This document shows positions 20,816-64,000 of a stretch of DNA of 64,000 bases, in pieces. The notes under the pieces are model-generated. The model saw only the letters and a list, made by a program, of their open reading frames with translations, was not told where the DNA came from and searched no databases. The position numbers were made by a program, and so were the translations under genes. Within the stretch, counting starts at the first letter, position 1; each line of letters opens with the position of its first letter. This DNA is from Ginglymostoma cirratum (lineage: Eukaryota), in NCBI GenBank assembly GCA_024137785.1, contig JAHRHZ010000021.1, forward strand, positions 20,827,129 to 20,891,128. The letters run 5' to 3'.

Positions 20816-21044
20816 TAAACATACAACCCATCATTGCTGTACATCTCACTGCTGCATTGTGTTCTGTACTCTCCAGGCATTTAGTTTTTCTCCCCTCTGC
20901 TATTCCCCTTCTGTAATCTCATAATCTTGCCTTTTTGTTTAAGTCAAATATTAATTTACCCTCTCAGTCTGCAACATCTCATTAGACCATTTGGATTCTT
21001 TTGTATCCTGTCTGCCTATTTCCCAGCGTTTAAATAAATTCTTT

Positions 21045-21600: not shown

Positions 21601-21640
21601 TTCAAGCACCACCTTCCTTACAAGTCGCACTGTCTGCTTA

Positions 21641-21808
21641 ATAGAGTCCTAGAGTCACACAGCATGGAAACGGACCCTTCGGTCCAACCAGCCCATACCG
21701 AACAAAATGTCAAACTAAACTAGTCCCAGCTGCCTGCTCCTGGCCCATATCCCTTCAAACCTTTCCTATTCATGTACTTATCCAAATGTCTTTTAAACAT
21801 TGTAATTG
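21641..21808 (-). mobile_element. CR1 (HER1-like) 3' tail
   Basis: ATAGAGTCCTAGAGTCACACAGCATGGAAACGGACCCTTCGGTCCAAC. Confidence 0.8.
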
Positions 21809-24549
21809 GACTGATCGTCCCATTGAACTGGCATGGAAACAAGTAACCCTTGGCCCTGAGGGACCGCCTTAGAGGCGGATGGCTAAATTAAATACCCCAT
21901 CCACTAGTGCCAACTAAGGTGGTGTCACCTACAACCTTTGACAGTCTTATCTCTGTCTCCAGCTTAAAACCACTCATTTTCAATGTAAATAGCAAATTAT
22001 CAGGATGTTTTATTATTCAAGGTTGGGACATGAGTATCACTGGCCAACATATTGCCCATTCTTGGTTGCCCTAGATAAGGTGGTAGTGAGCACATTTTCC
22101 TTCTGTAGCACAATGTGTGCAGTTTGATTTACTTTGAAGTAATACATTGCCATCCATCACTCGCAGTTTAAAATAATTCTAGCTATCTAACGTCCTGCCT
22201 TACACTCCCCAAGTAATTGTCTACGTGCCAGAGTACGGGCCAAATACGTTCAAGTAACACTGCTTATAAAAAAGCCATAATACCATATTAACATAATTTT
22301 CTTTCAGTGAAAGAAATGACACTGCTGGGAGTTGGAAAATTTAAAATAATGGTAAGGAATGTTAACTGCTCAAGAGAAGGAGGAAGGGGGGTGACAACAA
22401 TTTGCAATTACATGCATTGTTGAGGTCCCAAGCGAAAGAAGCCATGAATAGTCAAAGAAAATTGAGAAAATTAAACTGAAATTTGGAGTCAAGAAAGGGC
22501 TAAAGGTGGAGGAGAGAAAAACAAGCCTGCTGAGCACTGTGGGATGTATTACTACTTTCATTGGCACTACATAAATGCAAGTTGTGGGAAGCCAAAGATA
22601 AAAGGGATGGGTTGGTAAAATGAGGGCTAATGCCGCTCAAGGAAGGTTCGGTCTTGCAAATGTCTCCATGCTGAAATCACAATCAGTGAACCATTCAATA
22701 TCACTTTGCAATTGTGTTTGGAAAGCAGAAGGAGGAACTTTTATGAGAGGCTGAAAAATTAGTTTGAGTTTTCTCAATTATTGGCAGTCCCGGAATGAGG
22801 ATTCAAATGTAACAGATGTATTCTATTATAGCAATAAAGATCACAAACATTTTTATATTAGTAAACATTTACACCTGCATGATATCAATAATTGTTTAAA
22901 CAGTGAATGATTAGTGAAGTGCTTTGAGTTTATAGAAGAGACAAAGGGTCTGCAGTTTGTCTCAAGCATGGAGTGAAATGTTGTATCACACTACCACTTA
23001 GTTGTTATCTCTTGGGTAGATAAATAGCTATTCTGTCTTGTCTCTGTGCATATTGACAAACATTCCCCTCTCTATTTCAGTGACCTACAACTAGATGGGT
23101 TTTCTCTGTATAATATACTTGATGGCCAGTAGAGAAAATTTGTTAGTGGGGGATTATTTTAGCTCAAAATATCTTGGCCTAACCACCCAATCTGTGATCA
23201 TTCAGGTTTGTGGTTTTTTTTAAAGAAAGCAGGAGATGGACCTTTTTCTTCAAATACTTTTTTTCTTGCTGATGTAGAGAGGAGACCTAATTTGTCTGTG
23301 CCTTTCTTTGCTCCAGAATACGCCTGAGCTGGCAACAAAGGAGTGCCTGTGCTCCCAGGAATTTTCTACATTCCACTCTGGAGTAGGCATTTTTCTCGGC
23401 TACAAAGGCTCTTTGGCGAATTCTCTCTAATCACTGGATTTACTCTTGGCTCTGATAGGTGCCATTCATGGCTATGGCCTGCCATTTGATTGGGTAGAAG
23501 TATTAATGGATCTTTTCATGGTGAACAAAGCTTGAAGAACATTCCTCTGAAGATCACAAAGCTGCAGTTGTGGATTTGACCACTGCTGCTCTCTAGATAG
23601 CATTTCTTGTTCTCTACTTCCACTTCTTAAATAACAGTGCGTGTTGGCACTGTTCAGAGGAAATATGTGATTGTTTATTTCAAATCTTGGTTTATGCTTT
23701 TGCACAGCATTTGATGTACACTTTTTTTTTGAATTTTTTTATTGGGTATACTTTACATAGTGAAGTTGTTAGGTTTGTGCTTTCCTTTTTGTAAACGTTG
23801 CCTTGTATTAATAAACCGTAACTGGATGTTATCAATGGGAACTGGATAGCTACTGTTTAACACTACAGCATCTGTCTTGTATAGATAGTCTGCAAATGTT
23901 TTACTTGGGAAACTATTAATGTTCTTTCTGCTCCTCCTCCAACATTCAAATAAAATGAACGAATAGGATAACCTCTCCATTTCCACTTTATAAAAATCTT
24001 ATCTTAAATGATAATGCATTGCAGCCAAACATGGGACAGGCTGGAGCATGGAATTAAAACTTCCCAAAATATGTCCCTTTTTTAAAATTTATAGTAGTTT
24101 TTACTTCAGAGTTTTGCCATTTGAAGAGTTGCAATATTTTTCTTTACTTATTTTTGCTATTATAAAAATATGTTCCTCTTTGCATGTTGTTGTTTTAAGT
24201 AGAGGCACACAGTCATCCAGAACGTCTGCAGCTGCTGCTTCATGGAGTGAAATGATACATCAGTCCACCAAGTGGCATTTTAATTGTACAGGCTAGTTGA
24301 TGGAATTTACCCAATTCCGGTAAATCACGTAGAGTGATGGGCTGCTCTAGGGCCTGAATATCCAGCTTTCAAGTTAGTGGTCTGTTCTGTGTTAGCCGTG
24401 AGCTATTAGGTCATGAAATACCTTTTTCGCCTCATTTTATTAGGCCTTCTCTGAATAATGCAGAAATCTAAAATATTCCAAGTGCATCTGTAACAGCGTA
24501 GTTAAAGCAAATTCTTTAATAAACTTCAGCTCGTCCAAAATTCAGCAGC

Positions 24550-32461: not shown

Positions 32462-34225
32462 ATTATGTGGGGAAACTAATTCATTACTTATCAGTGTTCT
32501 GACTGTCAGGTAAACTTACAGCAGATAAGTTATTTGACTTGGGTAAGGCAGTTGCTCCTGGGACTTCTGGCCTACCTGTGAAGTGAGTGCTAACTGTGCC
32601 TTCTGAACCGTTATACTGAGATTGCAATTTACTGGTTGCAGAACAGGATTCCACATCTATCTTTCTGTCCAGGCTCAGTTCTCAATCTCTGGACAAAGCC
32701 AATTGGAACCAGAGTGCTTGGGCATCATGAAGGAGTTAGAGGGTGATTAAATTTGCAGACAAACACCAATTAATTTACACATTAAAATCCAGAGACCATA
32801 TTTTGGAGAGGAAGTGGAAGGCGGGAGGTGTGGCAAGAGGACAGTTGACAATTCAGATGTGTCTTGGTGATTCTTGCACCACTTTGAAATGTTGAAACAA
32901 AAGCTTGGGAGCATTAATTTTTGAATTTCTCTAGATAAGCAAGCGTGTGACTGAATTCCACAGTGTTCTGAACATTTTCCTCTTGTAATGGCCATACTTC
33001 TTGGGTCCCTAGCAATGCATTAGGGTTAAGTGAACTTTGGTCTGTTCACAGCAGCTGTATTTTTCGCTGTTTTGTTTTAGCTTGGATCCAAACCATCTAA
33101 TGTAATACACACTTGAAGAGGAAGTGTCATGCCTCCGGCTAAGCTGGTAACCTTCCCACCAAGCCATGTGCTACATGATCTAACTGGCTACACTCTACTG
33201 GACAAAGCTATCCCTAGGGCAGGGACAGCTTTGATTTCACATATTTGACTGGAGCATATGTTTATAGTTTGCTTTAAGTCTAAACCTGATCGGGTAATGT
33301 TCAAAAATGCAAAGTCTTTAGTTGAATTTCACCCCAAGTGCTTGAAATTTAAAGGACAAAAATTGCAGAATCGTCTTGCTTTTGATCAGAACTTGATCTT
33401 ATCAGGCATTTTGCTGCACTTTGTGTTGATTGAGTATTTTCAGTATATACTGGACTAAGAATTTCCCTGGAACAAGGTTGTCATTCTACAAATGCTGTCT
33501 AATTCAGTGATTATTTTGTGATCATCAGGTGTCACAAAAATAGAGTACATACACCTAGCCAACTCTCTCCAAAATGAAAAACAACACCATAAATGAATGA
33601 AGCTATATGGTTTTAGGTGTCTTTCTTCACCCTAGTTTTGCTAGTGTTAAGTAGAGATCACTGGACCTTGCTGGTGTACTGCAGAGATCCAGTTCAGCTC
33701 CTTCTGATAGAAAGAGCAGTCTGACATTGGCATATCTTTGCAGACGTACAATCTCCTCAATCTGCAAGGCTGACAATGTCCATTTACAACTGGGTGCACC
33801 TGATAAAGGGAGAACTGCATGACTGTTATTGGCTGCACACTTGTAAAGTGAAAGCACCTTTTTAACAAAAAAAAAGCAAACCATCTAATTTCTTCCGGTT
33901 TCAGAGCTCGAGAAACTTCGATATTGAGTTTAGTACCTTGCAGTAAAATAATAGTGTAGAAATTTAGACAAAATAATCTGAGAGTAAGGGTTTATAAATA
34001 CAGCAATACATGTAATCCATCATTACTGATCCATCATGAAAAGCATTTTCCAGCCTTTCCTAAATATTCTTCATTCAGAGAAAGAATCCACTTAGCTAAT
34101 GATGGAGGCTATGGAATATTTGAACAGCCCTTGGCGTAAGTTGAGGGTGTTCAATGTGGAATTACCTTGCATGTTCAGATTTACCTCCACAGTGTGCGGA
34201 GTCCTTATTTAAATGAGCAGCTGAG

Positions 34226-34428
34226 ATAAAAGGTACTGCAGATGCTGGAGAATCCGAGATAACAAGCATGGGGCTGGATGAACACAGCAGGTCAAGCAGC
34301 ATCATAGGAGCAGGAAAACTTGATGTTTCGGGCCTAAACCTGATGAAGGGTTTAGGCCCGAAACGTCAAGTTTTCCTGCTCCTATGATGCTGCTTGACCT
34401 GCTGTGTTCATCCAGCCCCATGCTTGTT
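34226..34428. mobile_element. Penelope-type fold-back insert with 17-bp TSD
   Basis: Arms 34260-34340 and 34349-34429 are complementary with one mismatch. TTAAATGAGCAGCTGAG at 34209-34225 and 34427-34443. Confidence 0.88.
34340..34367 (+). ncRNA. Minimal hammerhead ribozyme core (Penelope type)
   Basis: CTGATGA-A-GGG-TTTAGG-CCC-GAA-ACGT-C: both catalytic boxes, stem II, palindromic ACGT stem III and a GUC triplet. No 5' stem I strand is evident. Confidence 0.65.
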
Positions 34429-34489
34429 AAATGAGCAGCTGAGTGTGTTTTGTACCACAAGGTCTGTTTCATTTTAGTGAGAAACTATT

Positions 34490-37420: not shown

Positions 37421-37616
37421 AACAAATTACTGCAGATGCTAGAATCTGTACAGAAAACAAAAAAACGCTGGAGATCACAGCAGGTCAGGCAGCATCCATG
37501 GAGAGAAAGCAAGCTAATGTTTTGCATCTGGATGACTCTTCTAAACTCACATTAGGTTGCTTTCTCTCCATGGATGCTGCCTGACCCGCTGTAATCTCCA
37601 GCATTTTTTATTTTCA
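37421..37616. mobile_element. Older Penelope-type fold-back insert
   Basis: Arms about 37453-37520 and 37549-37615 are complementary. Starts with the CTGCAGATGCT family motif. Confidence 0.75.
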
Positions 37617-38289
37617 CCAGCAAATTCAAGCCCACCTCAGGTTTTGCTGGTCCACAGAGCTGTAGTTCTGCAAAATAAAAATCAAACCTGGCTCTCTGAC
37701 GTTAATTTAGAAATGTAGCCATTGCTTTTGGAAGATGGGTGAGAATAAAAACCTTGTTGATCTGCTCAGGTGGATTTAAAAGAACCCATCCCTTTGGTAG
37801 AAATGTTAGATGTTCTTCCAGTTTCAGAACCAAGATTTCTCCCTCAGCCAGCACTTTCTAAAATACATTTTATTTTGTTCCTGCACCTGTTGTGTATATT
37901 AGTTTAAACAAGGTAGAAATAAGACATAGGTACAAAAGAAAGCTGTACTGTCCACTAATGATTTTCTACTCATTCAGTGCTGGACTTCACACACTACAGT
38001 CGTCTGTTACCAGGATCTCTGAAATCTTGTTTGTCTATAGCCATACCCCTTTCCCACCAGTAGCTAAGCTCAATCCTAAACTCAAAGATTGACGTCTCAA
38101 TTCATCTATTTTTGCCATACATCTGGTTCTCTTTACGCCTTCTCACTCCACCCTTGCCAGAACTCCCTGGCCCATGGTTTCCTGGACCCAAGTGAATTGA
38201 CTTCAAAGCCTAATTTTCAAACCCCTCTAGGGTCTTGCTTCACCCTCCGTGACCAATCCTCTCCAGCTGCACATCTTGACTCTTCTTGC

Positions 38290-43469: not shown

Positions 43470-43822
43470 GGGGCGGCACGGTGGCTCAGTGGTTAGCACT
43501 GCTGCCTCACAGCGCCAGGGACCCAGGTTTGATTCCAGCCTCAGGCGACTATCTGTGTGGAGTTTGTACATTCTCCCCGTGTCTGCGTGAGTTTCCTCCG
43601 GGTGCTCCGCTTTCCTCCCACAGTCCAAAGATGTGCAGGGTAGGTGAATTGGCCATCCTAAATCGTCCATAGTGCCCAGGGATCTTTAGGTTAAGTGGGT
43701 TAGATATGGGGAATCAGGGGTAGGGAAATGTATCTGGGTTGGATGCTCTTTGGAGAGGCGTTGTGGACTTGTTGGGCCGAACGGCCATTTTCACACTATA
43801 GGGATTCTATGATTCGATGATT
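43470..43822 (+). mobile_element. HE1 (V-SINE), full length
   Basis: GGGCGGCACGGTGGCTCAGTGGTTAGCACTGCTGCCTCACAGCGCCAGGG...GGGATTCTATGATT. Confidence 0.93.
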
Positions 43823-45950: not shown

Positions 45951-47782
45951 TTCTTTTCTCATAACAGGAATTCAGCACTTAATCTAGATTGGCATTCCAG
46001 CTCTGTTCTAAGGGACTGCTGCATTGTGAACCTTTGGTCGAGATACCAAACCCTTTCTACTCGTTCAGGTTTATGTTAATGATCCTATGTTACTCATTGT
46101 ACGGAAGAGCAGAGAATTCTTCTGTGGCTTAACCCTCCAACAACCAGCACCGTTGAAACATTTTTGTAGAGGGGAATACTAGTTTATAATGAGGAAATGT
46201 TGATTGCACTGTACTGCATGATACTTGGCAATTGTTTGTTATAAGTGCTACTTAGCAATAACGAACAAAAGGTTAGAATAGTTTAACAGGCGACACTTTT
46301 CTCTGTCATAATGAATTTCTCCAATTTATTGCCTCTGTATGTGAGGATTTTTTTCTTATTTAATTTGAACATTTTAATTGAGGGATCCATAGAATTGGAA
46401 AAGTGTCTTATTTCAAGCCTAGGATATGTGGAGTCTCATTCATATGAGCCCAGCGGCTGTTCTAGTGGGATGCCAAGCAGTTGACATAAGGCAGCCTCGG
46501 GCTATATACCCACTGCTTGTTTCACTGCTGTTGGTTCCACGGCCGAAGACATAGGGAGTTTTCTTGTGTATTTGTTACAATAATGAAGTGGGAGAGTGCT
46601 GTGAACAGAATATGTAGCATTTTAAATAAATCCTAACTATATGGGCTCTGGTCCTGAGTTCATTTTGTACTGATGGAAAATTCCTTGTCTATTAAGTATG
46701 ATTTGAAAAGCTTCCAAAACTTTGCTTCAATGAAGTTGAGGCAATACAGCTATCACTGTGTGGTGTTGAATTTCATCCTCTGTTGCTCACACTGTAACAC
46801 ACGAGCACTGTTCAAACAGTCTGAAGCATAACATGTCTTTGTTTTTGATATAAATTAGTACAATGTGCATTTTGATTCTTGGTCTCTCACAATATTAAGC
46901 AATATATTTTAACAATACAAATTGACCAGAGGGTGTTGTCTGTGCAAACCCACTTCCTTTTGATGCAAGGAAACAAAGTATTTAACGGGTTAAATCTTTC
47001 AAAAGAAGCCAAAAAGCCAATAACTCCGACTACAACCTGAGGCACTTGTTAATAAGGTCTGTGACTTCAATTGTTACCAGGTTTCTGAGCAATGTGTAAA
47101 TCCTGCCTCTTTTCATGAATGACAATTAGAAATATATCGCACTCAATCTGTTTTCCTGAAACCATTCATAAAAATCAGATGGCGGAGCCTGGCCAGTACT
47201 TTTCTGGATGCTGGGGTGAGAAGGATTGGGAATAAGCAACAGTAAACTCTTGCCCCCGCCCTCTTCTGTCTCTGCAGTCATCGATGGTCCATTTGTTGAG
47301 ATTATGGGAGGATTGAGTGCTTTTTGGAGGGCAGCTGGTAAAATTACTTTGACACATACTGGGCTCCGAGCCAGTGCTGGCCTTGATTCAGACATTGTCT
47401 TTCCCCTCATTGAACTGTCAGGACCTAATTCATGGGAAAAAAAAGTCAGTGAGCTGGCAGCTCTGTCAGAGTGTTTCTCTTAGCCACGGTATGCAGAAGT
47501 CAAATGAATTCAAACTGCGCAACCAAAGCCTTTCTTTTCTTAGTATAACATTTCTCCTGACGTGAAGAGGTACAGGGATATACAGGTATTTGTCTATCAG
47601 TTGGCAAAGAATGAAAGATGTGCAGGCAAGTGTTTTCGAAGGAAAAGCATTTTACTGTGTGAAATTGAGTATAGGATGTTCCGTATTATGTTATACTTGA
47701 CATGCTGGTATGCTTACAATTAAGGAAAGTGAGAAACAGCATGAATACTTGATGGAATCTAACTGTAATTTGTTTCTTTCAG

Positions 47783-47815
47783 CCACAACAAGAGGTCCAG
47801 AAGAAGCCTGCTCAG
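47783..47815 (+). CDS. HMGA2: HMGA2 exon 4 (33-nt internal coding exon, 11-aa linker PQQEVQKKPAQ between AT-hook 3 and the acidic tail)
   Basis: CTAAC branch point at 47759-47763, then TTTGTTTCTTTCAG|CCACAACAAGAGGTCCAGAAGAAGCCTGCTCAG|GTATGT. Phase 0/0. Peptide matches recalled human exon 4 (PQQVVQKKPAQ) at 10/11 residues with the same length. Confidence 0.93.
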
Positions 47816-49379
47816 GTATGTGAACTTTTATTGTCTTATGAATACTCAAATAAGGATTTAAGTCAAGAGATATCAGGAACAGGGGAGGTGATGAGCCTGG
47901 ATTGCTTTCAAAGTTGGAGTTAATAACAAGGACATGAGCTCATGTGGGTTTCCTAATCTCAGCTGTCTGAGGAAAAGTGATAAATTGTATAAACATGGGG
48001 ACTACATGGAAGTTCATGGAGGATAATGTAAATCTTACACTACATTCTGAGGAATCTCTTCATTTTCCATCTGTTTCCTCTACTGTATCCTAACAGATGT
48101 CTTTACCACGTGGTAGTCTGGATCAGTTTAAAAACTTCTGATCTTGAAGTAGACTTCAGGGTTTCTTTAGGTTACACATGCATGGCCCATTACTCGAGCT
48201 AGCCTTTTCTTATGCGGGAAGACTTGGCAACTGGAGTAGAAAGAGAGAACTTGATCCATACAGTTGTAGTTTGAGGTTCACATTCTTGTCAACACAGCGA
48301 TGATAATCCAAATGACCGGACAAGTCAGGAAGCCTCTTTATTGAAGTTAACATATCCAGCTTCTAAAGGAACATTATGTTCAGTTAAGAATCTGCCCAAA
48401 GCGCGCACAGGACCGGAGCAACATAATGTCTGCATTAATTTCAAAGCATCAGCATTACTACAATTTCTTGGCGGTAAGCCATAAGCCATATTACAGCACC
48501 AGCAATTCCGGTAAAGCCTCTATAGACTGAACATTTGTCTGCCATATTGAGAATTTCACTTGTCTTTTTTAATGGAACATTTTATGCTGGCATTAGTGGT
48601 CACTAATTTCTGCAAACAAGTATATAGCTGATGTTTTATAGGCGTTATTTAATGCGCTTGGTGAACTGGCAAACTGTTTAATTAGGTCCTCCCTTACAGT
48701 CAATCCTGACCTTGTTCTTATCCAGAAGCCACAAATGCACTTTCTAGCGAGCATTGCTTGATGATATTGAGCAGCAGAGACCCTGGCCCCTCCCTCCCAC
48801 CAAGATGTATCACATTGAAGCAAGTATCTGTTTATGGCAACTAAGCAATTAGGGGTGCTTAACTTCAGCATGTTTAAAATTGATCTGCCGCTTTCTTGAA
48901 TTTTGTTTAGCCAAAGTGACACATGGAAATCCCATCACTTCATCCTAGAGTCTCCAAACCTAGTCTCCACAGATTAGATTTTCTGTTTGTATAGCACAAA
49001 ATGCATATGCGCTCCCTGTAGGAACACAATTTGCCAGTGCACTATTGATCTTTCCCCTGCTTGACAAGCAGAGATTATTGTAGTCATTTGAGCAAGTCCC
49101 CTGTGACAGACCTGCCTCTCTTAAGGCTCCATTAGTGAGCCAGAGTGGCTGGTCAAATATCAAAAGTGCCCTCAAATCTTATTTACCTATTTACAGGGTC
49201 AAAAAAAAATTGTACTCCATCTGGCAAGTCCCTAGTACTAATGTTTCTCAATCCCACTCAAATATGTATTCAATTTTCCCACATTATAGGTCTCCCTAGG
49301 CACTCCATTCCACATGTTCACCATCCTTTAAATATAACCTGTTGGAAGTGTCTTCCTCCTAAGCTTGGGCCCATATAAA

Positions 49380-49575
49380 ATCATGTGGGGCCTGGATAGA
49401 GTGCATGGGAAAGACCTATTTCCCATAGCAGGGAGGTCAGCAAACAAGGGACATAGATTTGAAGTAATTGGTAGCATGATTAGAGTGGAGCTGAGGAGCA
49501 ACATGGTCAGAAAGAAGGTGGGCGTGCCGCTGCCTGAAAGGTAAATAAAGGTAGAAAATCTCCATTGCTTACATA
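49380..49575 (+). mobile_element. CR1 ORF2 3' fragment
   Basis: AAAATCATGTGGGGCCTGGATAGAGTG...GGGACATAGATTTGAAG (KIM.GLDRV...GH.F). Confidence 0.6.
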
Positions 49576-49736
49576 TCCAAGCATTTTGTTTTATATTTGA
49601 ACTGCTCCACAGACATTACTTTCTCTACCACTATCACTCAATAGCAACAGTATCCCGTCTACAAGATGCACTGCAGAAATTTATAAATGCTCCTTAGACA
49701 GCTCCTTCCAAACCCACGACTACTACCATCTAAAAG

Positions 49737-50132
49737 TTGGATGTGGAAGATTTTAATCCTCTCTGTTACAGCTAAAACCTGGGATTCTCTTCTTGCTGCT
49801 AGAATTACACATGAGATAATACCCAAATTATTAATTACAGTGAAAGTTTGAATTTGCCTCTGCCAAGAGTGTGTTTATGGGATGTTACTATATTGGAACA
49901 GTTAATTAGTAGTGGTTTGTATATATTTTGTTAAGCATTTGGATAGAATTACAGTTAAGCCAATTCTTTTCTTTTTATTTGGTTTTGTATTGTTTTGTTT
50001 CAAGACTGGTTATTTGACCAATCGAATTGCATCCGGAATGCAGCACCTTGTTTACCTTTAAAATAAGAAAAAGTTAGGATTTAGACTATCTTCTTAATCT
50101 ATTTTAGAGGGAGTTTGGTCTGGTCCATAACA
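49737..50132 (+). repeat. 5' LTR (5'-truncated) of the Gypsy element
   Basis: Colinear with 53530-53864. Ends TGGTCTGGTCCATAACA. Followed by AATTAGGGCTTTTGCAGGGAT, a possible decayed tRNA-Pro PBS (TGGGGGCTCGTCCGGGAT). Confidence 0.8.
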
Positions 50133-50936
50133 AATTAGGGCTTTTGCAGGGATCAAAATCTCACATTCCAGGTTGGGCTTAGGACTATTGGACTCAAAGA
50201 CAGTGAGTGTTGTGTGGGTGTTCACTTCTGGGGTGTAGAATTTGGTTGGTTTAAATGTTGTGTCCTCTGTAGTAATGGTGCTTTCAGTCACTAAGTGTTT
50301 CCTTGGGGTAAGAAGTCACTTTGGGAGTTCTGTAGAAAGTGAGCCAGCAAAACTTTTCAAATTTGGCAGACAAGCTGGAGTTGGGATTGCCTTTATCTGT
50401 GTGAAAAGAGGTCACTGCAGCAATAGCTCGACATTTACGACCGCTAGAAATGCCATTGGAATCTTTGGAAATGGCTAAAATTCAATTGCAAATTAAGCAT
50501 GAGAAGGAAATGAAACAGTTTGAATTATGATTGAAAGTATAGGGAAAAAAAAGGAAAGGAAAGGAAGGCCCTAGCAGTAGACAGAGAGAAAGAGTTTTTG
50601 AACTTGAAGTTGGAGCTGAAAAACTCAGTCAATTTAAAATGGTGGAGGCAGAGGTGAAAGGTTAGAGTAGTGATGAGGACATTAATGGAAAGCAATCCCA
50701 TCATAGCCAAAGACCTGGTGGGGATCTGTTTAAATATGTGCAAGCATTGCCTAAGTTCAACAAGAAGCATGTAGAAGCCTTTTTCGTTTCATTTGAAAAA
50801 GTAGCTAGACAAATGAAATAGCTGGTGACCATGTCGGTAATGTTGATCACACCAATGTTGGTAGGTAGAGCTAGTGAGGTATTTGCATTACTATCAGAGG
50901 AAGTATCTGTGAAGTATGCTGAGGGGAGAAAAGCCA

Positions 50937-51236
50937 GGGCGGCACAGTGGCTCAGTGTTTAGCACTACTACCTCACAGCACCAGGGACCCAAGTTCAGTT
51001 CCACCTACAGGCAACTGTCTGTGTGGAGTTTGCACGTTCTCCCCGTTATTTCCTACAGGTGCTCTGCTTTCCTCCAGCAGTCCAAAGATGTGTGGGTTAG
51101 GTAGATTAGCCATGAGAAATGCAGGGTTACAGGAATAGGGTAGTAGGGGGGCGGTGGTTGAGACTGCTCTTTGGAGAGTCGGTGTGGACCTGTTGGGCCA
51201 AGTGGCCTGTTCTAACATCGTTCGGATTCTGTGGAT
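50937..51236 (+). mobile_element. HE1 SINE nested in Gypsy gag
   Basis: HE1 head and tail, flanked by GCCA (50933-50936 and 51237-51240). The gag frame RKA|ILSAYEL rejoins across it. Confidence 0.9.
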
Positions 51237-52634
51237 GCCATCTTAAGTGCATATGAGCTAGTACCAAAAGCCTACAAATAACATTTCAGGAAACTAAAGA
51301 GGGAACCTGGTCAAATGTACACTGAGTTTGAAAGGATCAAACAAAGTAATTTTGGTATGTGGATAAGGGTGCTGAAAATAGATCAAACGTACAGTATGAT
51401 GCTCTTAGGGAGACAATTATTTCGGAGAGTTCAAAGATTCACTTTGTGAAGTAGTGAGAACTCATGTGGAAGAGCAGAGAGTTAAGAATGCAAAATTAGC
51501 AGTGGGAATTGCAGATGATTGAGTTGGTTCATAAATCAAAGTTAGGCTTCTGGCATCAGTTTCAATCTGTGAGGGATAGGAATTGGGGGGTGGTGGGAAT
51601 AAATCCTCAGGCAGTAAGGGAAAAGGAAATATCAGTGAAGATAAAGAGAGTTTACCACTGGGTAAAAAGGAAGGAGAAGTCAAAAAGCTCGGGTGTTTTC
51701 ACTAATAAAGAGGGCCACATGAAGTTGCAGTGTTGGTGGTTTAGAAAAAGCCCTGAGAAGACAGATGTGGGAAAACAGGATAAGCCAGTGAGTTTTGTTG
51801 AAGTAGTAAAGGAAGGCTCAGTGGAAGCTAAAAAGCGGCAAAAGAAATCTACAGCCCAATCAGGGGTTGTTTGAGAAGAAAGGGCTAGATGTCTTTAAAG
51901 AATTTACTTGTGTGGTAAAATTTACTCATGCTTGCCAGGAAGAGCTGGTAAAGAAATTAGATTTTGAGATAGGGGAGCAAGTCAATCTTTGGTGAGAGAT
52001 GGGGAGATATGTAATTCAGAAGGAGTATTGTCAGAAGACATGGTAATATGTGGAATTCACGGTGAGAAGAGTGGTATTCCATTGTATAAGGTGAAGTTGG
52101 AGACCCCAGTGTAAAGTTGTAAATGGTGATAGGAGTAATAGAGAAATTCTTGGTATGAAAAATGTGCCTGCTACGTTTCAAAGACTAACCAATAAAAGTC
52201 TTTTCGGGATTACCCAATTGTATGGTGTATATCGATGATCTGGTAATTTTTAGTCACTCGTGGAAGGAACATTTGGAGCATCTGTCAGAATGGTTCAATT
52301 GAGGCAGGCTTGGTGATAAACCTGGCTGAGAGTGAGTTTGCTAAAGCCTAGGTCATATTCCTGGGCCATTTCATTGGACATGGACAGGTGGCTCCACAGG
52401 ATGTGAAAACAAAGGTTGTTGATGAAGAGGACAGTACTACAATTCCAGGAATTGGGTGGTTTTTATCAGAAGTTTGTACTGAATTTTAGCAGCCTGGTTG
52501 CTTCACTGATTGACTTACTGAAGAAGTGCAGAAAATTTCAGTAGACGGAGGAATATCAGAAGGCATTTAGCAGTCTGAACGCTGTGTTAACCACGGTTCC
52601 AGTGTTAGCTACACCCAATTACACAAAGCCATTC

Positions 52635-52759
52635 AAGAAGGGTCTAGGCCCGAAATGTCAAGCTTTCCTGCTCCTCTGATGCTGCTTGGCCTGCTGTGTT
52701 CATCCAGCTCCACACCTTGTTATCTCGGATTCTCCAGCATCTGCAGTACCTATTATCTC
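52635..52759 (+). mobile_element. Penelope-type pLTR insert nested at the start of Gypsy RNase H
   Basis: AAGAAGGGTCTAGGCCCGAAATGTC...CTGCAGTACCTATTATCTC lies between TKPFK and IDASDVG. Confidence 0.85.
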
Positions 52760-53282
52760 TATTGATGCAAGTGACGTGGGTGTACTGTTGCAAGAAGACA
52801 ATGAGAATATATAAAGACCTATAGGGTATTTTTCTTGAAAATTGAATAATCATCAGAAATATTCCATGATTGAGAAGGAGACCTTGAGATTGGTCTTGGC
52901 GATGCAATATTTCAACATTTATTTTGCCAGTAATGTGTCTGATACAATTGTATATTCTGATCATAACCCCTTAAAGATTTTGGAAATATTTAAGGATCAA
53001 AATACTAAATTGTTTAGATGGAGCTCTGATTGCAACCATTCAATTTGAAAATTGTATATGTGACACGACAAGAAAACGTAATTGCCAGCGCATTTTTGTG
53101 ACTTTGAAAGAAGACAGAGGCATTCAGTGGCAGGATACAGCAGATTGAAATGGACTGTAATATTGAATGCCTGCATGCTTAGGGTCAACGTAATGTATGT
53201 GTATTGCAGTGTACAAATAAAGGAAGACTTCATTTTTAAAAATGAAGCCATCTTTGTATATTGGGTTTTTTAAGGGGGTTGG

Positions 53283-53864
53283 TACGACAATACCATGGCT
53301 TTAAGAGATGTATTTTGTCCTGGCGTCTTTTTTAATGAGGAAAGGTTGAGACAGAGGTATTGAACAGTCTGCTTAAAAGCCAAGAAAGTAAACAGCTTGT
53401 GAAGCTTTGGTTTTTTAAGTTGGAACGTTGGAACAATAGAAGTAGCCTGAGTGGGTGGGGTCCAACTCCCAAAGAACCAGGGTTGTTTTTAGTTTTAGCC
53501 TTTAGTAGCAGTTGCCGGGGTCTTGAAACTGGATGTGGAAGCTCTCATTCCTTTCTCTGTTATAGCTAAAAAGCTGGGATTCTCTTCCTGCTGCTAGAAT
53601 TGCATGTGAGACAATCTATTTTGAGTGTGCCTTTGCCAAGAGTGTGTTTATGGGATATTACTACATTGGAACAGTTAATTAGTATTTTGTTAAGTATTTT
53701 GATGGAGTTACAAAAAATAGTGTGTTTTCTTTCAACACTGGTAGCTTGACCAATCGAATTGCATCGGGAATACGATGCCTTGCACTTAACTTTAAAATAA
53801 GAAAAAGCTAGGGTCTAAACTGTCGTCTTAATATATTTGAGGGGATTTGGTCTGGTCCATATAC
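53283..53864 (+). repeat. 3' LTR of the Gypsy element
   Basis: Preceded by a T-run and AAGGGGG (PPT-like). Shares CTGGGATTCTCTT, GACCAATCGAATTGCATC and TGGTCTGGTCCATA with the 5' LTR. Confidence 0.8.
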
Positions 53865-55309
53865 TGTACTGTTTGCACAGTTCATTGCCCTTCCCTAATC
53901 CAGTTTGATTGTATTAAATGTAATGTGCTACTCAATGTTCTAAAATTCAAAATACGTCCTTTCTATACTGCTGTCTGCTATTGTTTGAAACGCACTCTCT
54001 CCTCCCACCCATCTTCTAAAACATCTGAACTTCTGAATACATCTTTGTTTCTGTTCCCAGAAATAGTTATTCAATTATTGGGTCAGCCTTGGGGCTTTGG
54101 CATGATTCCAAATGTTCACAGGTAGCCATCATCTTGGTGTCATCTTAACCCCAAAGTTAATCTATTTTACCTCCTCTTATTCTCCCAAGCAAGATAATGA
54201 CTTGTTGATCATTACACCGCTGACAGCTTCAGGTTTGACCCTTGGCTCCTGGTACCAGGAGCTGCTCATGAGAGGCCCAAAGAGGAGCACATCTTGTAAT
54301 AGAATTCTATGAACATACTATTACACCGCATTGAATAGTGTTTCCAACAATTGGAACTGCAGAGTTGCAGGACCAGTGACTCGCTTTTTTTTTGTTGAAA
54401 CTTAATCCCGGTAAACTTTGAGAAGTAGAAATATTGAGATTTTGTTCTTCTGTCTAGCCTCAAGGTAACCCCTTCCAAAAACCGTTGTTCTCAATCTCTT
54501 GTCCTTAATAGCGATAGCACGTCTGTCTTCAAGTCATGTGAAGAACTAACCATGTTACTTCTATCATTCCTTTCAAATTTATGTGCAAATTCACTGATAT
54601 CTTGACTGGAATTACATACGAAAGAAAACTTCATTGTTCTTTGCATTTTCAACATCACAACAGGTCTAGGTTTGTGCAAGGATTTGCCCAGACTTTGATG
54701 CACATTTATTAGATTCCAGGGGATTATGTAGATTCTTCATGGCTTCAAATCACCAGTGTGCTTACATTTGGATGGCATTGCAGATTTCCTGTGTTTTTGT
54801 TCTTGTCATTATGTGCACAAAGAAACTAGAAACTGATATCGGAACAAATGAACTGTTCCCATAATTGTAGGTGGATGGAAATTCCTTTATAATTGAAGAT
54901 GTTTTTAATGGTTATGACTGATCCTTTTAGTCTCGCTTTCACAGAATACGTACGGCAGAGAAGGACACCATTCAGCTATACCTGATCAATTGTGCTTTGG
55001 CTGTCATCATTAATTTTTCTTTAATTTGACAATGCAGAATTTTTTCTCGAATCCTTTACTGTGGTTTGTGCTTGTAGTTTTAGAAGCTGATCAGACGGAA
55101 AAATAAACTATTAGTCTCCCACTCATGAGGACAGCTGGAGCTGCAGGCTATTGGTTATTAAGATCATTGATTTGTTGAGGGTTTTCATGCATCAGTTGGG
55201 TGTATATACGCAATTTTCCTCTCCCTGGATGTAGTGAGAAGGGAGGATAATTGGCTGAGTTTGCCCTGGAGAGAAACTGACTCCCTTGTCACAGCAGAGC
55301 TTCAATAAC

Positions 55310-56120
55310 AACATCAACACGTCAGTGGGGTAGACAGATATGTGGCAGATGATGTTCAATACGGAGAAGTGTGAAGATGCAGTTTGTACCAAGGACAGTG
55401 TGAAATAATGAAATTGTAAAGAATTTGCAGGAGCCAAGAAGCCTAGGTATATGTGTATATAAGTTATTTAACATGGCAGCACAGGTAGGGAGGACCGTTA
55501 ATAAAGCATACAGTATTCTAGGATTCTTTAAAGGGGCTTTAGAGTAGATTCTTCAGAGTACATGACAGGTAATGCTGAACTTGTATTGGATACTAGTGAA
55601 ACCTCCACTGAAGTTTTGGACACTGTTTTTGGTGCCACACTACAGGAAGGACGTCAATGCATTGGAGAAGGTGCAAGAAGAGGTTTGTGCGAATGGTTCC
55701 AGAGACAAGAAACCTCAGTTGCGAGAATAATTTGGAGAAGTTGACTGTTTTCCTTGGAAAGGAGAAGGCTGAGGAGATTTTAAAAAGATTTTCAAAATCT
55801 TTAAGGGCCTAAATACAGTAGATGGGGAGAAATTGTTCTCACACTTAAAAGGATCAAGATCCAGAGGGCACAATTTTAAAGTCATTTGCAGAAGAAGCAA
55901 ATGCAAGGTGAGAGAACTTTTTCATATAGTGTGTGGTCCAGTTTGGAATGCGCTGCCTGGAAGAGGGGGCCATTTTAATTGAGATATTCAAGACGGCATT
56001 GGATAATGTTTCTTCTGAAACAAATGTGCAGTGTTATAGGATGGCTAAAATGCTCAGAGAGCTGCTGCAGACAACATTGGCCAAATAGCTTCCTTCTGTA
56101 CCAGAACAATTCTGTCAATC
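55310..56120 (+). mobile_element. Decayed CR1 ORF2 3' part and tail
   Basis: TGGCAGATGATGTTCAATACGGAGAAGTGTGAA (WQMMFNTEKCE). TGGAATGCGCTGCCT (WNALP). Confidence 0.8.
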
Positions 56121-56738
56121 TGATCTTCTCAGCCTGACAGTCATTTAAGGCCTTTAAGTGATCGGTTAATGGTTACTTGAGGGCCTCAACCTGCCACCTC
56201 CAAAGGGCCAAGAAAGGATCCTAGTTTCCCTTTGGGAAATCATGGCAACCTGATATCGGGGTTAGCTGGGTGTGCACCAGTTTCCCCAATTTGGGGCATC
56301 TTGAGGTATCGCAGATGCGGGGCATGGGGATGGCCTCTGAAAACCACTGCTCCTGCCCTTACTTCCAAGACCTCTGACCCTCCTCCTGCTACAGTCCCAC
56401 TGCCCGAGATGATTCTAGAAAGTACAGGCCTTATCGCTGTTGGATTCCCCCAAGGAGCAGCCCTGGGTTGGCTGACTTTCAGAACCAGTTTCTGCCAGTC
56501 AGAGTCACCAGTGTCGAGACTTGAGATGGTTGAGAACCATGCCCTGACTGTCAGCTGGAATGAGCCTGATTGGTGTTTGATTGGACGAGTTTTCTCAGAG
56601 GTGGGTGGGTTGGAAAGTTGGTTCCCACCTAGTGCGCACATACCCTCACATCTAAACAAAGAAATGGCAAAATTCTGCCATTTGATGGGTATGATTGCCA
56701 ATACTACAAAGCAAAAGATTAGACAACGTTTATGTGGA

Positions 56739-57120
56739 AACATAGAAAATAGTAACAGGAGCAGGCCATTTGACGCTTCAAGCTTGCACTGCCATTCAAT
56801 ATAATTATGGCTTTTCATCCAAATCAGCATCCTGTACCACTTTCTGAAGAAGCGTCTAGGCCCGAAACGTCAGCCTTCCTGCTCCTCTGATGCTGCTTGG
56901 CCTGCTGTGTTCATCTAGCTCTACACCTTGTTATCTCAGATTCTCCAGCATCTGCAGTTCCTACTATCTCTGAAACCACTTTCTCCCCGTACCCTTTCAT
57001 CCCTTTAGCCCTAATGAGCTATATCTAACTCCCTGAAAACTTCAGTACTTTGGCATCAACTGCTTTCTGTGCCAAAAAAATCCAGTGGCCTACCTTTTTC
57101 TGGGTGAAGAAATTCTTATT
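56739..57120 (-). mobile_element. CR1 3' tail fragment (host of the insert at 56844)
   Basis: CATAGAAAATAGTAACAGGAGCAGGCCATT...TTTGGCATCAACTGCTTTCTGTG...GGGTGAAGAAATT. Confidence 0.75.
56844..56974 (+). mobile_element. Penelope-type pLTR insert with hammerhead core and 10-bp TSD
   Basis: CTGAAGAAGCGTCTAGGCCCGAAACGTC start. ACCACTTTCT at 56836-56845 and 56975-56984. Confidence 0.85.
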
Positions 57121-58971
57121 TTTAAGAAAAGTCATGGGCATGTGATTGAAAAAGCGACCATTCTTTTTCAGGGATAGGCACAGGGGAGGGTAGGTACAAA
57201 ATTTTTGAATAGCATTTTGTTTTCATTTACCTGTCCCCTTTTGTGTTGTGTTTTTGTTTCCCGTGTGGCTGCTACCGCCGTCATTGAGAGAGAGGGATGT
57301 CACTGAGTTAATGGAGCTCTCTCACTGCTTGACATCTGGAGATCCAGTGAGATAACCCTGGCATTTCCGTACATGTGCCGTTTCAACTGTATGGGTTGAT
57401 CTGGCTCCCTCTCACTGCCTGCTTTAGTAACTGCTCCCAACCAGTTTCCCTCAATTATGTCATTAATGCTCCCTGTCAAAACACAACCAGAAAGGCAGGG
57501 AAGGAAATGAATCATAATTCTTTGAAATGTTCCATGACTTGTATCTAAAGAATCCTGGCAGAGATATTGTTTGAAATGCAGGCTATTACAGGGTAGAGGC
57601 ATCACGGCTGATGCTTGAATCACCTGCCACACCCCCTCTCTCTCTCAAGTAAATACCTTGTTGGGAATTTGCTAAAACCCCAAGATCACTATTTTTCTCT
57701 CCCTGGGCGAGTTTCAGTCATGGCTGGGTGGGAATGAGGGAGCGGGTGACAATGCAGGGGGTAATTGATATCATGTGTAAATTGGACTGTCAGGGGAGAG
57801 AAAAAGAATTGACGTCTCACGTTAGTACGTTCTCATGGTGCTTCCTGCCAGTCCTAGGAAAATCGGGTGACTGTCCTCTCACTGCCTGCCAGAAGGACAA
57901 AGTGGGAAGAGATGTTCTAAGAGTGGGTTTCTCCCTGTTGAGGTGGGCTTGATGACTAGCAGAGGGATGTCCGCGACTTTCCTTCGGCAAAATACAAGAT
58001 GAGTTTTGGTGCCCTTGGAGCTATACCCCAGCAAAGAGAGAGAGGGAGGGAAGTCACCAAGCCCTAGCAAGGAAAGTTTAAAACAAATGCACCTGTCATC
58101 TTCTGGCAGGTCCTAATCCTGACTTTAGTTGCTAAGGATGTTTCAGCAACTTTCCCGCTCAGGCCTGACTGAGTTAAAATCACAGTTGGAGCGCAGTGTC
58201 ATTGTTGAGTCCTGATCCGCATAATCAATGGAAGGGCCCACTGACCTTGGCCAGGCAGCTTAAGCTGCCTGTCAAGATGCCGGAGTGAAAATCGCATTCC
58301 CAATGATCCGGGGGCTTTCTGGTAGGTAAATAGTTGGGGCTGTTCAACATTTGCAGCCTCCTGCTCCCCCTCCTACATTTCCTGTAGGGCTATAGAGCTC
58401 AGTCTGGCGATCAAGTTTCCTACATCAGCATATACTACTCCCAAGTCCAGCAGCAATTCAATTCAAAGTTGTTCTTGAGGGAAATGACATTGTGGCAGCA
58501 TGCAGAGAGTATGCTTTGAATAATTTATGTGATACTAATATATGTCCAAATTCGTTCTGACAGAAACTAATCAATTACTCCTCTATTGAAAGTCTAAAAA
58601 TAACCAATGTTGAACAAATGTTTGTGGACAACTGTGAGGGCTATGTAACTGATCCTAAGAGAATAAGACATAGGACCAGAAGTAGGCCATTTGGCCCATC
58701 AAATCCTCTTCTCCATTCAGACATTATGTTCAGATTCGTTAATTATTTGGTATTCTGTTCTATTTTTATGAAGAATTGTTCCAGTTTGCTTCATAGAATT
58801 GACATTTTGGATAATGGGATTCAGTTATTTTAATTCAGGCTGAGGCTTCCAATACTTGCCAGTGACAGCTCGAGCTGTCAAGAATCAACATGTTAAGAAG
58901 AACTGGAATTATCAACAACACCAATATGCTGAACTGGTATGAAAATGGGATTTTTCCTGACGTTAAACTTA

Positions 58972-59260
58972 AGGGTGGCACAGTGGCTCAGTGATTAGCA
59001 CAACTGCCTCACAGTGCCAGGGACCTGGGTTCGATTCCACCCTCAGGCGCCTGTCTGTGTGGAGTTTGCACATTCTCCCCGTGTCTGTGTGGGTTTCCTC
59101 CGGGTGCTCCAGTTTCCTCCCACAGTCCAAAGATGTGCAGGCTAGGTGGATTAGCCATGCTAAGTTGTCCATAGTGCCCAGGGATGTTTAGGTTAGGTGG
59201 GTTAGACATGGGAAATGCAGGGGGAGGGGAATGGGTCTGGGTGGGATGCTCCTAAAAGAC
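58972..59260 (+). mobile_element. HE1 (V-SINE), 3' truncated
   Basis: GGGTGGCACAGTGGCTCAGTG...GGGTTCGATTCC...GGGTTTCCTCCGGGTGCTCCAGTTTCCTCCCACAGTCCAAAG. Confidence 0.92.
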
Positions 59261-59889
59261 TTGCCTGTTTCAATTTGTAAGCCCATTTCACTATAAGCGT
59301 GGCAACTCTAGAACCCAGATAACTTGTTACATTGGAAATAGTTGGAATGTGCAGTAGCTCAGAGGTAGGGACAGTACCATTGTGACACAAGAGGCCCTAA
59401 TATAGGGAATGAGTTTTCTGTGGCTCATGTTTCATTGGGTGATCAGCTGGTTAATGACTGCATCTATGTTGCACACAACAACCTGCTGTCAAATCACCCT
59501 TCACTCCTGCAGCAGGTAATGAGGGCTAATCTAAACAGGCTTCTCGGAGTCTGCTTTCAGTCACTTATCACAAAGCTCAATCAAAACGATATCATAATAT
59601 CATGATGTTCCAGGCTTTGCATGGAAAGCAGTGTTAGTTTGTAACTCCAGCTGCTTGAGGTGCTTTGCTCTATGTTGCACAAGATCTGCAGTTTGGGATT
59701 CGGGCTTATTGCTTTTGAGTTTCTAGTGTATCGGGAAGGCTGAGTGCAGATGTGATTGAGTGCAATCCCAACAGTGGCATCACAGTAAAGTAGAAGCTGC
59801 TTTAGTGTGCATTAAGTTGGCATGTATATACATGCAGAGGCTGCTTAAAGGGCTGGTGGTAAGCTTGGCAGTCTTTCATTCAACCAGTA

Positions 59890-60240
59890 CCGCCATTCCA
59901 GGGACTTGAGCACATAATCCAGACAAACGCTTTGGTGTAGGAGCCAGGGAATGGTGTCAGACCCTGCCTTACCCCTCCCGGCCAAGGTTGATTTTTAAAA
60001 GTTCTCGAGGCATTGTTAGAAGTTCTGTGGAGTTTTTTTTCTGATATTAATGCCAATTTTGTCCTTAATAAACATTACAATTTGGTGATGATTGCTGTCT
60101 ATGGGAGCTTGCTGTGCACAAAAAATGGGCATTGAATTTCACACATTAGAGCAGTAACTACACTTCCAAGATACTTCATTGGTTGGAAAGCGCTTTGAGG
60201 TTATGATAGATGTAGACGTCATTTAATGGCAAATCTTTTT
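59890..60240 (+). mobile_element. Decayed Deu-domain SINE
   Basis: GACTTGAGCACATAATCCAG...GGGAGCTTGCTGTGCACAAA...CTTCATTGGTTGGAAAGCGCTTTG. Confidence 0.65.
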
Positions 60241-63065
60241 TCTTTAAGTGCCTCAGAAATCATTCACAGTCATATGTATAAGATATATATGTTTCCAGTT
60301 CTTTATGCCCACTCCCCACAAAACACATGAGTGCAGTAAGGTATGAAAAGTATTTCTAACATATCTTTGGTCTGAGAGAATTTGCATTTATGTAGCGCTT
60401 GACTAGATTTCTATGAGCATCCAAATATAATGACTGTTTTTTCCTTTCTACTTTCAGTCACTAGGTGGGGAGAGTTCATGGATTTGGAAGTGGGGATACC
60501 CACAAAAATCTACAGAAAAACAGTTGTGCCAGTTCACCAACATGTTCCTGCTTCCTGCTCCTTTAGTGACAACAATCCATCACCCATGGCAGGAAGCCAA
60601 TTTAGGCTTTTTGGCCACCAATTGGCAGCCATTTTTTTAGCGTAATTCACATTTTACTGGCCAGTCAGCGGACCCCTGCCGTGGCTGCAGCTGGTCAGGA
60701 GGCAGGTGCAGGGCTGGAGGTTACACACTTTGAGAAATAAATTAAATCTATACCTGCTTTAAGAAGCACATTGGTAAGCCTTCAACTGCTTTGCAGTCAG
60801 GGACTTGGCATTTTCTCCCAAACTCCTCGATGTGATGGATATAATCACCAACTGATTCACTCCTTTGTATTGTACATTCCCCCTCATATCTCATTTCTAA
60901 CACGCAGCACTCTCACTGCATAGCCCACGGAGGTGGCTTGGTCTTGCATGCAATCTTGCCGTCCTACCTCTGTACCTGGCCTGCTGCCTCTCACTTGACA
61001 GTGATCCTGCAAGTCACCTCTTAACTGTTGTAATATTACTCAGGAGGTGTTCTGCTGCTGCTGTTGCGAACAGGATCGGGTCCTGAAGAAAGTCTGGACT
61101 GCCCAAAGCATTCCAAGTCTGTAAGGTTCAGCACACAGTTATTATACAGGCAAACACGTAGCCATTGAATGAACTGCAATTCATTAAAACGGACAGTGAA
61201 ATAAATAAACTGTTGGTTTGCTTCACGGTATTGTTGGTTTTGGGAAGACTGTTGCGCTTGGGCATCTGTTCATTTATTTTCTTCAAATTGAAGATTTTTG
61301 ACATTTATTTTACACTTTGGATCCTAGTTTTGACAGCTTGTCCAAGGATTGAAATGAGTACTGCCTCTGTTCTGAATTCGATTTGTCAACCTAGAGAAAT
61401 GCTGAGTCTCTTGGTTTGAACAACACATTGATCAAGGATCTGCAGATAATATTATCCAACATGAACATAGAACATGAAATAAGCATTAGAAGCATCTCTT
61501 CCAAACCGATTCTGAAATAGCAAATTTCCTAATGCAGTGAGCTTCTCTCTGCAATTTTCATCCCTTCCCCAGGTTATATTCCTAATGGGTAGTGACTCCT
61601 GTCTGAAAGATTAACCAACCAGCCATTATAAAGTGTGAACTTTGACAGTGGATTTTTAGCGGTCTCTTTGACTCTGGGGAGTTCAACAGCTGCGAACAAT
61701 CCTATACATACACAGCATCCGTTCAGACGCTTGTGGCTGCAATTGAGAGATAGCAAACTGAAGCAGAATCCCTTGGCTTCTTCCAGCCAACCCAACACTG
61801 CCGTTCCAGTCTTAGTGAACAGGGTTTAAGGCCAGGTTGAGTAAAAGTCGCAGAGAGGAACGCAATTGTTTGGGGTAGACCGGACATCAAACAGGGCATT
61901 CAAGATCTGTTTGTGTCATCTATTCCCCTATTAAACAGGCTGAACTATTGGACACGCAGCTCATTTCTCCAACTGTGTGGACACGCACAATTCCAATTGG
62001 ATTATACAAGTTCGGTTGGAAAATCCCCAGAGGCTTATAGATATGGGAAGAATGATACTCAATCTGAAAGACAGTAAATGTAGTATACATCTGCAACAGC
62101 ATTAAAATAGGTCAATGTCAAGTGTTTCATTGGACATATTTATATACCCCTGTAGACTATATAAATTTAAAGAAACCCATTTGTGAAAAATGTTGCTACA
62201 TTCATGATGAAGTTGCTTTGATATTTTTTGAACCTGTCTTCCAAAGCAGTGCTTTGGAAATCCAGATATTCAGATGGTCCTCTGCTGGATTTATCTCCTT
62301 TAACAAGTGATAGGTTTGGTATTCAGTACATTTTGGGCAAGAGGAGGACACTATCTGAGAGTTAACTGTTGAAGCCTGGGCTATGCTGGGGTTGGTAAGG
62401 AGGAGGGGAAAATCTGATGAGAGAATGGCCCAAGCAAAGGTGGTGGGGATGAGGGGTTCTGAGACTGAAACTTAAAGACTGATGGAAGAACTAAGATGGC
62501 ATGGATGGGAGGAAGAGGCTAGAGGCTCTAACTCCTGTAGGCTCAGATGTATTCCTGTTATATAGTGTCCAGAAAGGAAAATACTTTGCATGGCTTCATT
62601 AGACCATTTCTGCCCATCTTGGCTGATGTGATTAGTTTTGTTCAGGCTTTGGGCTCTCTGATGGAAAGTGTTTCACTCTCTGCCCCAGCTGAGTAGTCTA
62701 CCCGTGCCTGTTTTGAATGTGAGTTGCAATCATAGAGATAGATGGCTGGTAATGCTCTGTGCAAACCCCCAGCTGCCATTTTAACAACTTGCCCATCTTG
62801 TTGATGGTGAATTGGATTAAAATTTAGCCCAAGTCGCAAAAAGAACACGCTGTCTATGGTTTTACAACTGAGAACCTCAGACTGGTTTTCAGTGAAGAAG
62901 TTACACAGCAGATTTGTGTAACCTAATCATAAGGTGTTCTCATTGTCAAGAAGAAAAACACTTAAGGCCTCTTGTTATTTTATCCCTGTTTCAGCATTCT
63001 GCCTTTGCTACGAATATTCCTAACAAAATAACTTTATTTACCTCAACTTTTGGTAATCACTGTTC

Positions 63066-63835
63066 CATAAGAACGTAGAACATAGAACAGTACAGCACAG
63101 TACAGGCCCTTTGGCCCACGATGTTGTGCCGACCTATTATCCTACTCTAAGATCAGTCTGCCCTGCATACCTTACATTTTACTGTCCTCTGTGCCTATCC
63201 CACAGTCGCTTAAAAGCCTCTAAAGCATCTGACTGCACTACTACTGCCGGCAGCGCATTCCACATGCCCACCACTCTCTGTGTAAAGAACCCATCTCTGA
63301 CATCTCCCCTATACCTTCTTCCACTTACCTTTAAAATTATGCCCCCTCGTAATAGTCATGTCCACCCTGGGAAAAAGTCTCTGACTATCCACTCTATTTA
63401 TACCTCTTATCATCTTGTATACCTTTATCAAGTCACCTCTCATCCTTCTTCGCTCCAATGAAAAAGCCCTAGCTCCCTCAACCTTTCCTCATAAGACCTG
63501 CCCTCCTGTCTAGGCAGTCCTCTGCACCCTCTCGAAAGCTTCCACATCTTTCCCATAATGAGGTGACCAGAACTGAACACAATATTCAAAGTGTGGTCTA
63601 ACCAGGGTTTTAAAGAGCTGCAGCATAACTTCGTGGCTCTTAAACTCAATTCCCCTGCCACTGAAAGCCAACACACCAGACGCCTTTTTTACAACCCTGT
63701 CAACTTGGGTAGCAACTTTGAGGGATGTATGGACGTGGACCCCAAGATCCCTCTGTTCCTCCACACTGCTGAGAATCCTGCTATTAACCCTGTATTCTGC
63801 ATTCAAATTCGACCTTCCAGAATGAATCACTTCAC
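63066..63835 (-). mobile_element. Relatively well-preserved, 5'-truncated CR1 LINE
   Basis: 63510-63830 EQRDLGVHVH...LVRPHFEYCVQFWSPHY. Tail (CATAGAA)n-like repeats and CAGTACAGCACAGTACAGGCCC. Confidence 0.92.
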
Positions 63836-63903
63836 AAAGTAAGTAAGAAAGAATGTCATGATGCTGTAGGCCTTTTATAAATCCTTCTGGAATTTAGCCT
63901 TTT

Positions 63904-63998
63904 CTGAAGAAGGGTCTAGGCCCGAAACATCAGCTTTCCTGCTCCTCTGATGCTGCTTGGCCTGCTGTGTTCACCCAGCTCTACACCTTGTTATCTCT
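63904..63998 (+). mobile_element. Penelope-type pLTR insert starting at a hammerhead core
   Basis: CTGAAGAAGGGTCTAGGCCCGAAACATCAGCTTTCCTGCTCCTCTGATGCTGC. Confidence 0.85.
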
Positions 63999-64000
63999 AA

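Follow-up and report, generated by a model that had tools for sequence, protein, structure and literature searches.

A 33-nt exon in 64 kb of genomic DNA, most likely exon 4 of HMGA2 from a non-mammalian vertebrate, probably a shark

The stretch of DNA analysed here, 64,000 nt long and called the window in what follows, carries on its forward strand a predicted coding exon of 33 nt (47783-47815), whose 11 codons read PQQEVQKKPAQ in phase 0 at both ends and which appears to be the ortholog of exon 4 of HMGA2. Upstream of it lie a branch-point-like CTAAC (47759-47763) and, at 47769-47782, a pyrimidine tract (47769-47780) followed by the AG acceptor (47781-47782). On the downstream side, the last CAG of the exon is followed by the GT donor GTATGT (47816-47821), so placed that 8 of 9 positions agree with the consensus. 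Judging from the sequence and the consensus, the candidate branch A is position 47762, predicted to sit 21 nt upstream of the exon. A purine-rich, putatively enhancer-like motif, GAAGAAG, is found inside the exon (47800-47806) and recurs in a human primer discussed below.

A first-pass annotation of the window, made from its letters, had proposed an 11-codon exon with canonical splice signals at 47755-47822. Indeed, an 11-codon, phase-0 exon bounded by canonical splice sites is what is found at 47783-47815, with branch motif, tract, AG and GTATGT all present, and the wider span corresponds to the exon proper plus acceptor and donor. The exon had also been described as invisible to the ORF track, which is fair: the stop-to-stop frame containing it comprises just 56 codons, and the 31 open reading frames of at least 100 amino acids listed for the window do not include it. 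RNA folding of 47700-47900 gave an unremarkable structure (z 0.43); moreover, the window returned no Rfam matches, no tRNA genes and no recursive-splice-like sites.

The nearest repeats detectable within the window are at 43812 and 49738, and the exon is at least 1.9 kb away from any of them. Downstream of it, on the forward strand, a decayed LTR retroelement, presumably of Gypsy type, extends over about 49738-53861 between direct repeats (49738-50129 and 53530-53861) that are 70% identical. It is interrupted by many stops and frame breaks; of 10 fragments, 3 match models of reverse transcriptase or RNase H, with the lowest E, 3e-10, at 52839-53045. Within this element a SINE is nested at 50936-51207 and a LINE-tail repeat at 52635-52760. 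The former is one of four forward-strand copies of a tRNA-headed SINE (12541-12784, 43471-43714, 50936-51207 and 58973-59216), which are 68-89% identical to the reference copy. At the end of the window, on the reverse strand, a remnant of a LINE reverse transcriptase occupies 63513-63893; a homologue search with its ORF yielded 103 candidates, 99 of which passed, and no shark protein was named among them. Three of the matches to this remnant (P0006, P0015 and P0099) carry the name of Proteus mirabilis or of Klebsiella pneumoniae, come from contigs of 301-653 nt and show 53-75% identity; they are likely to be vertebrate DNA in bacterial assemblies. The SINE is probably the HE1 V-SINE and the LINE its HER1 partner. 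HE1 and HER1 are tabulated for sharks and rays in PMC3747384, and related V-SINEs are reported from zebrafish, lungfish and frog (PMC3747384, PMC2911107, PMC5499810). It is on these repeat families that the likely assignment to a shark is based.

Several inverted repeats complete this picture. A near-perfect one (34209-34443) has arms at 34260-34340 and 34349-34429 that are 99% complementary and separated by an 8-nt loop. The arms consist of the LINE-tail repeat, present twice in opposite orientations, and a 17-nt direct repeat flanks them (34209-34225 and 34427-34443). The structure probably arose by inverted retro-insertion, the direct repeat being the target-site duplication, and would fold into a long hairpin in the pre-mRNA. 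Two further inverted pairs, one at 37438-37631 (83 nt, 83%, 28-nt spacer) and the other at 8262-8398 and 21651-21787 (137 nt, 88%, 13 kb apart), are probably transposon copies. In addition, the forward strand of 18001-22000 is strongly skewed towards pyrimidines, with a GC skew of about -0.2 and an AT skew of -0.23 in its first half; this may be the remnant of a LINE in antisense orientation.

The splice signals have to be judged against what a window of this size offers. The bare arrangement of an AG and a GT 33 nt apart carries no weight in 64 kb: both strands together hold 506 such pairs, 284 of them open in phase 0. Strict signals left 12 exon-like pairs of 9-300 nt, 7 of which have a branch motif, and of those 7 two are short and frame-preserving, namely 47783-47815 and 62689-62718. 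Under the strict filter (tract, branch motif, donor of 8/9, length of 9-51 nt and a multiple of 3), which was set with the 33-nt exon already in view, 100 shuffled windows gave a mean of 0.11 sites (none in 89 windows, one in 11) as against two in the real one. The other site that passes, at 62689-62718 on the forward strand, is exon-like, 30 nt long, reads LSSLPVPVLN in phase 0 and has the donor GTGAGT. No identity was found for it; it may serve intron 4 as an alternative or cryptic exon, or be a product of chance.

The identity of the exon is defined by comparison with the product of the human growth-control gene HMGA2, residues 82-109 of which are printed in PMC6884478. The window peptide agrees with residues 84-94 at 10 of 11 positions, Glu replacing Val87, and over this same stretch the mouse protein equals the human one according to bioRxiv 10.64898/2026.05.15.725447. 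Residues 1-83 of HMGA2 are attributed to exons 1-3 (PMC4998094), and to exon 4 the 11 residues that link the last AT-hook with the acidic tail (PMC11291832), so that the AG and the GT of the window fall on the human junctions. In agreement with this, the match to a human oligo spanning the exon 3/4 junction (PMC6196634) ends at the AG, and the residue after the exon departs from human HMGA2 at the GT; the similarity to residues 84-94 is therefore confined to what lies between the exon junctions.

At the nucleotide level, a human siRNA given in PMC11143425 covers exon bases 1-17 and is identical to the window at 14 of them, and a human primer given in PMC9240040 covers bases 13-32 with 19 of 20 identical. 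Jointly, these oligos cover bases 1-32, base 33 falling outside them, and 29 of the 32 are identical, with differences at bases 11, 12 and 15. The first-pass annotation had given about three differences in 33 nt and a Val where the window has Glu, and three is the number observed in the 32 bases covered. Codon 4, which encodes Glu in the window and Val in human, is Ile in the rat oligo (PMC11143425), and mouse has another Val codon there (PMC13474244); the change in the window thus falls where mammals also differ among themselves.

The expected number of 10/11 matches to this one peptide by chance, in the six frames of the window, is 8.5e-8, and the next best match to the exon peptide elsewhere in the window reaches 6 of 11. 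A whole proteome contains some 1e7 11-mers, among which about one peptide match of this quality is to be expected; it is therefore the coincidence of the boundaries and the identity of the bases that decide the case. Since the flanking HMGA2 exons are absent from the window, the naming of the gene rests on 33 nt. With length, phase and both boundaries in agreement, and with 10 of 11 amino acids and 29 of 32 nucleotides identical, the earlier naming of the exon holds, and 47783-47815 is, with high confidence, a working exon 4 of HMGA2 from a non-mammalian vertebrate, probably a shark.

Database searches add little to this. A homologue search with the 56-codon frame against longer proteins returned no candidates, and this empty result is uninformative, given that an 11-residue match cannot reach an E of 10 among 5.8 billion sequences. 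Searches similarly insensitive for 11 residues were a phmmer search of the PDB with a 21-aa stretch (no hit at E 10) and a Pfam search with the exon frame and 10 of the 31 long ORFs, in which nothing passed a curated cut-off. A text search of the literature with an 18-nt stretch of the exon found no paper, and no title among the matches listed for HMGA2 in cartilaginous fishes concerned a shark HMGA2 exon, in a coverage that leaves out most subscription journals.

If the gene is HMGA2, the absence of its other exons from the window implies that intron 3 exceeds 47.7 kb and intron 4 exceeds 16.1 kb. Positions 1-47782 of the forward strand, in which relics of SINEs and LINEs occur, would then form the 3' portion of an intron 3 of at least 47.7 kb, and positions 47816-64000, with the decayed LTR retroelement, the 5' portion of an intron 4 of at least 16.1 kb. 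In the 47.7 kb upstream no AT-hook exon was found, the four motif matches obtained in six frames on both strands not being exon-like; in the 16.1 kb downstream no acidic last exon was found, the 6 and 13 loose candidates not being tail-like. Matches to the let-7 7-mer seed are scattered through the window (seven on the forward and four on the reverse strand), and a 10-nt let-7 site motif has no match in it. The AT-hook exons 1-3, the third of them ending in W83, and the acidic-tail exon with its 3' UTR are expected beyond the window edges. MSRB3 and LLPH are conserved neighbours of HMGA2. Sharks commonly have long introns. In the human gene, of about 140 kb, intron 3 is described as the largest intron (PMC11291832).

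The balance of T and A on the strands fits this layout. T exceeds A on the forward strand in 29 of 32 bins of 2 kb (two reversed, one tie; sign test 5e-7, the bins being partly dependent). Such an excess has the direction expected of a transcribed sense strand, and therefore fits a sense-strand intron on the forward strand. The motif counts do less for it: AATAAA is rarer on that strand (35 vs 61, p 0.01), but this is one of nine motifs tested and partly a consequence of the skew, and U1-like motifs do not differ significantly between the strands (43 vs 30, p 0.16). The observed/expected ratio of CpG is 0.25. We infer that the gene is transcribed from the forward strand and that the whole window consists of its introns 3 and 4, with the exon between them.

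When long introns flank it, an exon of 33 nt is recognized by exon definition, in which the branch point is bound by U2, the tract by U2AF, the donor by U1 and the exon by SR proteins. The spliceosome would accordingly find this exon through its branch point, tract and donor, probably assisted by SR-protein sites within it. Predicted joining in frame would run from the exon of AT-hook 3 through the 33-nt exon to the last exon, so that an 11-residue linker would carry the acidic tail and the 3' UTR would be brought in. In mammals, the 3' UTR of HMGA2 is reported to be repressed by let-7 (PMC7013770). The conservation of the nucleotides is likely explained by protein constraint combined with the ordinary constraint on a short exon, in which every base is near a splice site.

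The low synonymous divergence had been read earlier as a sign of constraint at the level of splicing, with GAAGAAG as an example. Window and human share 8 of the 9 third positions that can be compared. The probability of such identity is 0.20, 0.08, 0.036, 0.011 and 0.005 at dS of 0.5, 0.75, 1, 1.5 and 2, respectively, in a simple model with assumed dS, for nine sites chosen after the fact in an exon picked for its conservation. On this sequence comparison, the synonymous conservation of exon 4 seems only modestly unusual. As for GAAGAAG, it occurs nine times on the forward and four times on the reverse strand of the window and arises in the exon because the Gln-Lys-Lys codons end in G. With 13 occurrences and such an origin, it was rejected as stand-alone evidence. 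What is left of the earlier claim is the weak argument from the shared third positions, and nothing ties GAAGAAG in particular to it.

It is nonetheless conceivable, if somewhat doubtful, that an ancient and specific SR-protein element keeps the bases of the exon in place, rather than general constraint on short exons, slow substitution and the circumstance that an exon must be well conserved to be spotted by eye. The third positions would speak for such an element if dS is 1.0 or 1.5, and lose most of their force at a dS of 0.5. GAAGAAG is common to window and human, a point weakened by its dependence on the G-ending codons. A further point in favour comes from human cells: it is reported that human stem cells can skip HMGA2 exon 4 to give a short isoform, and that mutation of an SRSF1 motif within the human exon disrupts this CLK3-regulated skipping toward the short form (PMC10082069, PMC11781073). 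Against a frozen element, in turn, a synonymous site within the exon differs between mouse and human in the sequences of PMC13474244. A bolder proposal, which we consider unlikely, is that SRSF1-dependent skipping of exon 4 would be as old as jawed vertebrates, its cis-element frozen in the shark exon, and that sharks would toggle between full-length and truncated HMGA2 by means of an alternative last exon in the long intron 3. If the switch of human blood stem cells proved to be ancestral, an isoform mechanism relevant to cancer would turn out to be an ancient developmental control.

Returning to the identity of the segment, the reading as a working HMGA2 exon has to be weighed against that of an HMGA-type exon 4 from outside the working HMGA2 ortholog, either an orphan copy left by segmental duplication or an HMGA2-like paralog kept in this lineage. 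The absence of any other exon of the gene from the window, and the one non-conservative change from Val to Glu, which takes two bases, would both suit a copy of this kind. However, the intact signals, the open frame and the 8 of 9 unchanged third positions imply continued selection; codon 4 varies between rat and human as well; and the account of the family in PMC7013770 describes jawed vertebrates with HMGA1 and HMGA2 only. We therefore regard such a copy as quite improbable. Chance resemblance within intronic or intergenic DNA seems far more remote still: exon-like sites do arise at 0.11 per shuffled window, a second and unexplained one exists at 62689, and the search space of a proteome is large, yet 10 of 11 amino acids and 29 of 32 nucleotides agree here, both boundaries line up with those of an 11-codon exon on record, and 8.5e-8 per named peptide stays far below 1 after multiplication by plausible numbers of short exons. 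Finally, a fragment of a processed, retrocopied HMGA2 pseudogene, which the richness of the window in retroelement relics and the mention of a truncated likely pseudogene for mouse (bioRxiv 10.64898/2026.05.15.725447) might bring to mind, has a negligible probability and was discarded on the junctions, since the match ends at both AG and GT, no sequence of exon 3 or exon 5 lies alongside and the exons are not joined without introns.

With the exon read as exon 4 of HMGA2, its antiquity is no surprise. HMGA1 and HMGA2 seem to be present in all vertebrates, agnathans and Xenopus being possible exceptions (PMC7013770), and the hmga gene of amphioxus is described as similar to human HMGA2 in how many exons it has and in its genomic neighbourhood (PMC7013770, citing Bozzo 2017). 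With HMGA2 in jawed vertebrates and its exon layout traced to amphioxus, exon 4 is expected in a shark, and the antiquity of this layout, already argued from amphioxus, is not new. The first-pass annotation had placed both the exon and a giant intron 3 before the split of cartilaginous and bony fishes; the identity of exon 4 would sustain the first part if the window does come from a cartilaginous fish, and for intron 3 the window provides just a lower limit of 47.7 kb, from which homology of size does not follow. We thus expect 47783-47815 to be a real, correctly named and ordinary ortholog of a well-studied exon. The biological gain is small, HMGA2 being expected across jawed vertebrates. 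Its use is rather in annotation: it gives a name to a 64-kb window in which the gene itself has no long ORF, and illustrates how an exon of 33 nt slips past ORF-based tracks.

Among known systems, the CLK3-SRSF1 switch between HMGA2-L and HMGA2-S (Cesana et al. 2018, as reported in PMC10082069 and PMC11781073) has its motif in human exon 4; for the species of the window, a short isoform, an alternative last exon and SRSF1 binding would all be conjectural. To our knowledge, HMGA1 has no exon 4 linker sequence. It belongs to the same family as HMGA2, with AT-hooks and an acidic tail (PMC7013770), and little global similarity is described between the two beyond the AT-hooks (bioRxiv 10.64898/2026.05.15.725447). 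Closer are mouse and rat Hmga2, whose codons 1-3 of exon 4, as contained in published oligos, are identical to those of the window. The closest parallel is exon 4 of human HMGA2 (HMGI-C, P52926): like the exon of the window, it has 33 nt and 11 codons, is in phase 0 at both ends and sits after a long intron, and the window differs from it by Glu in place of Val87 and by one synonymous change at codon 5.
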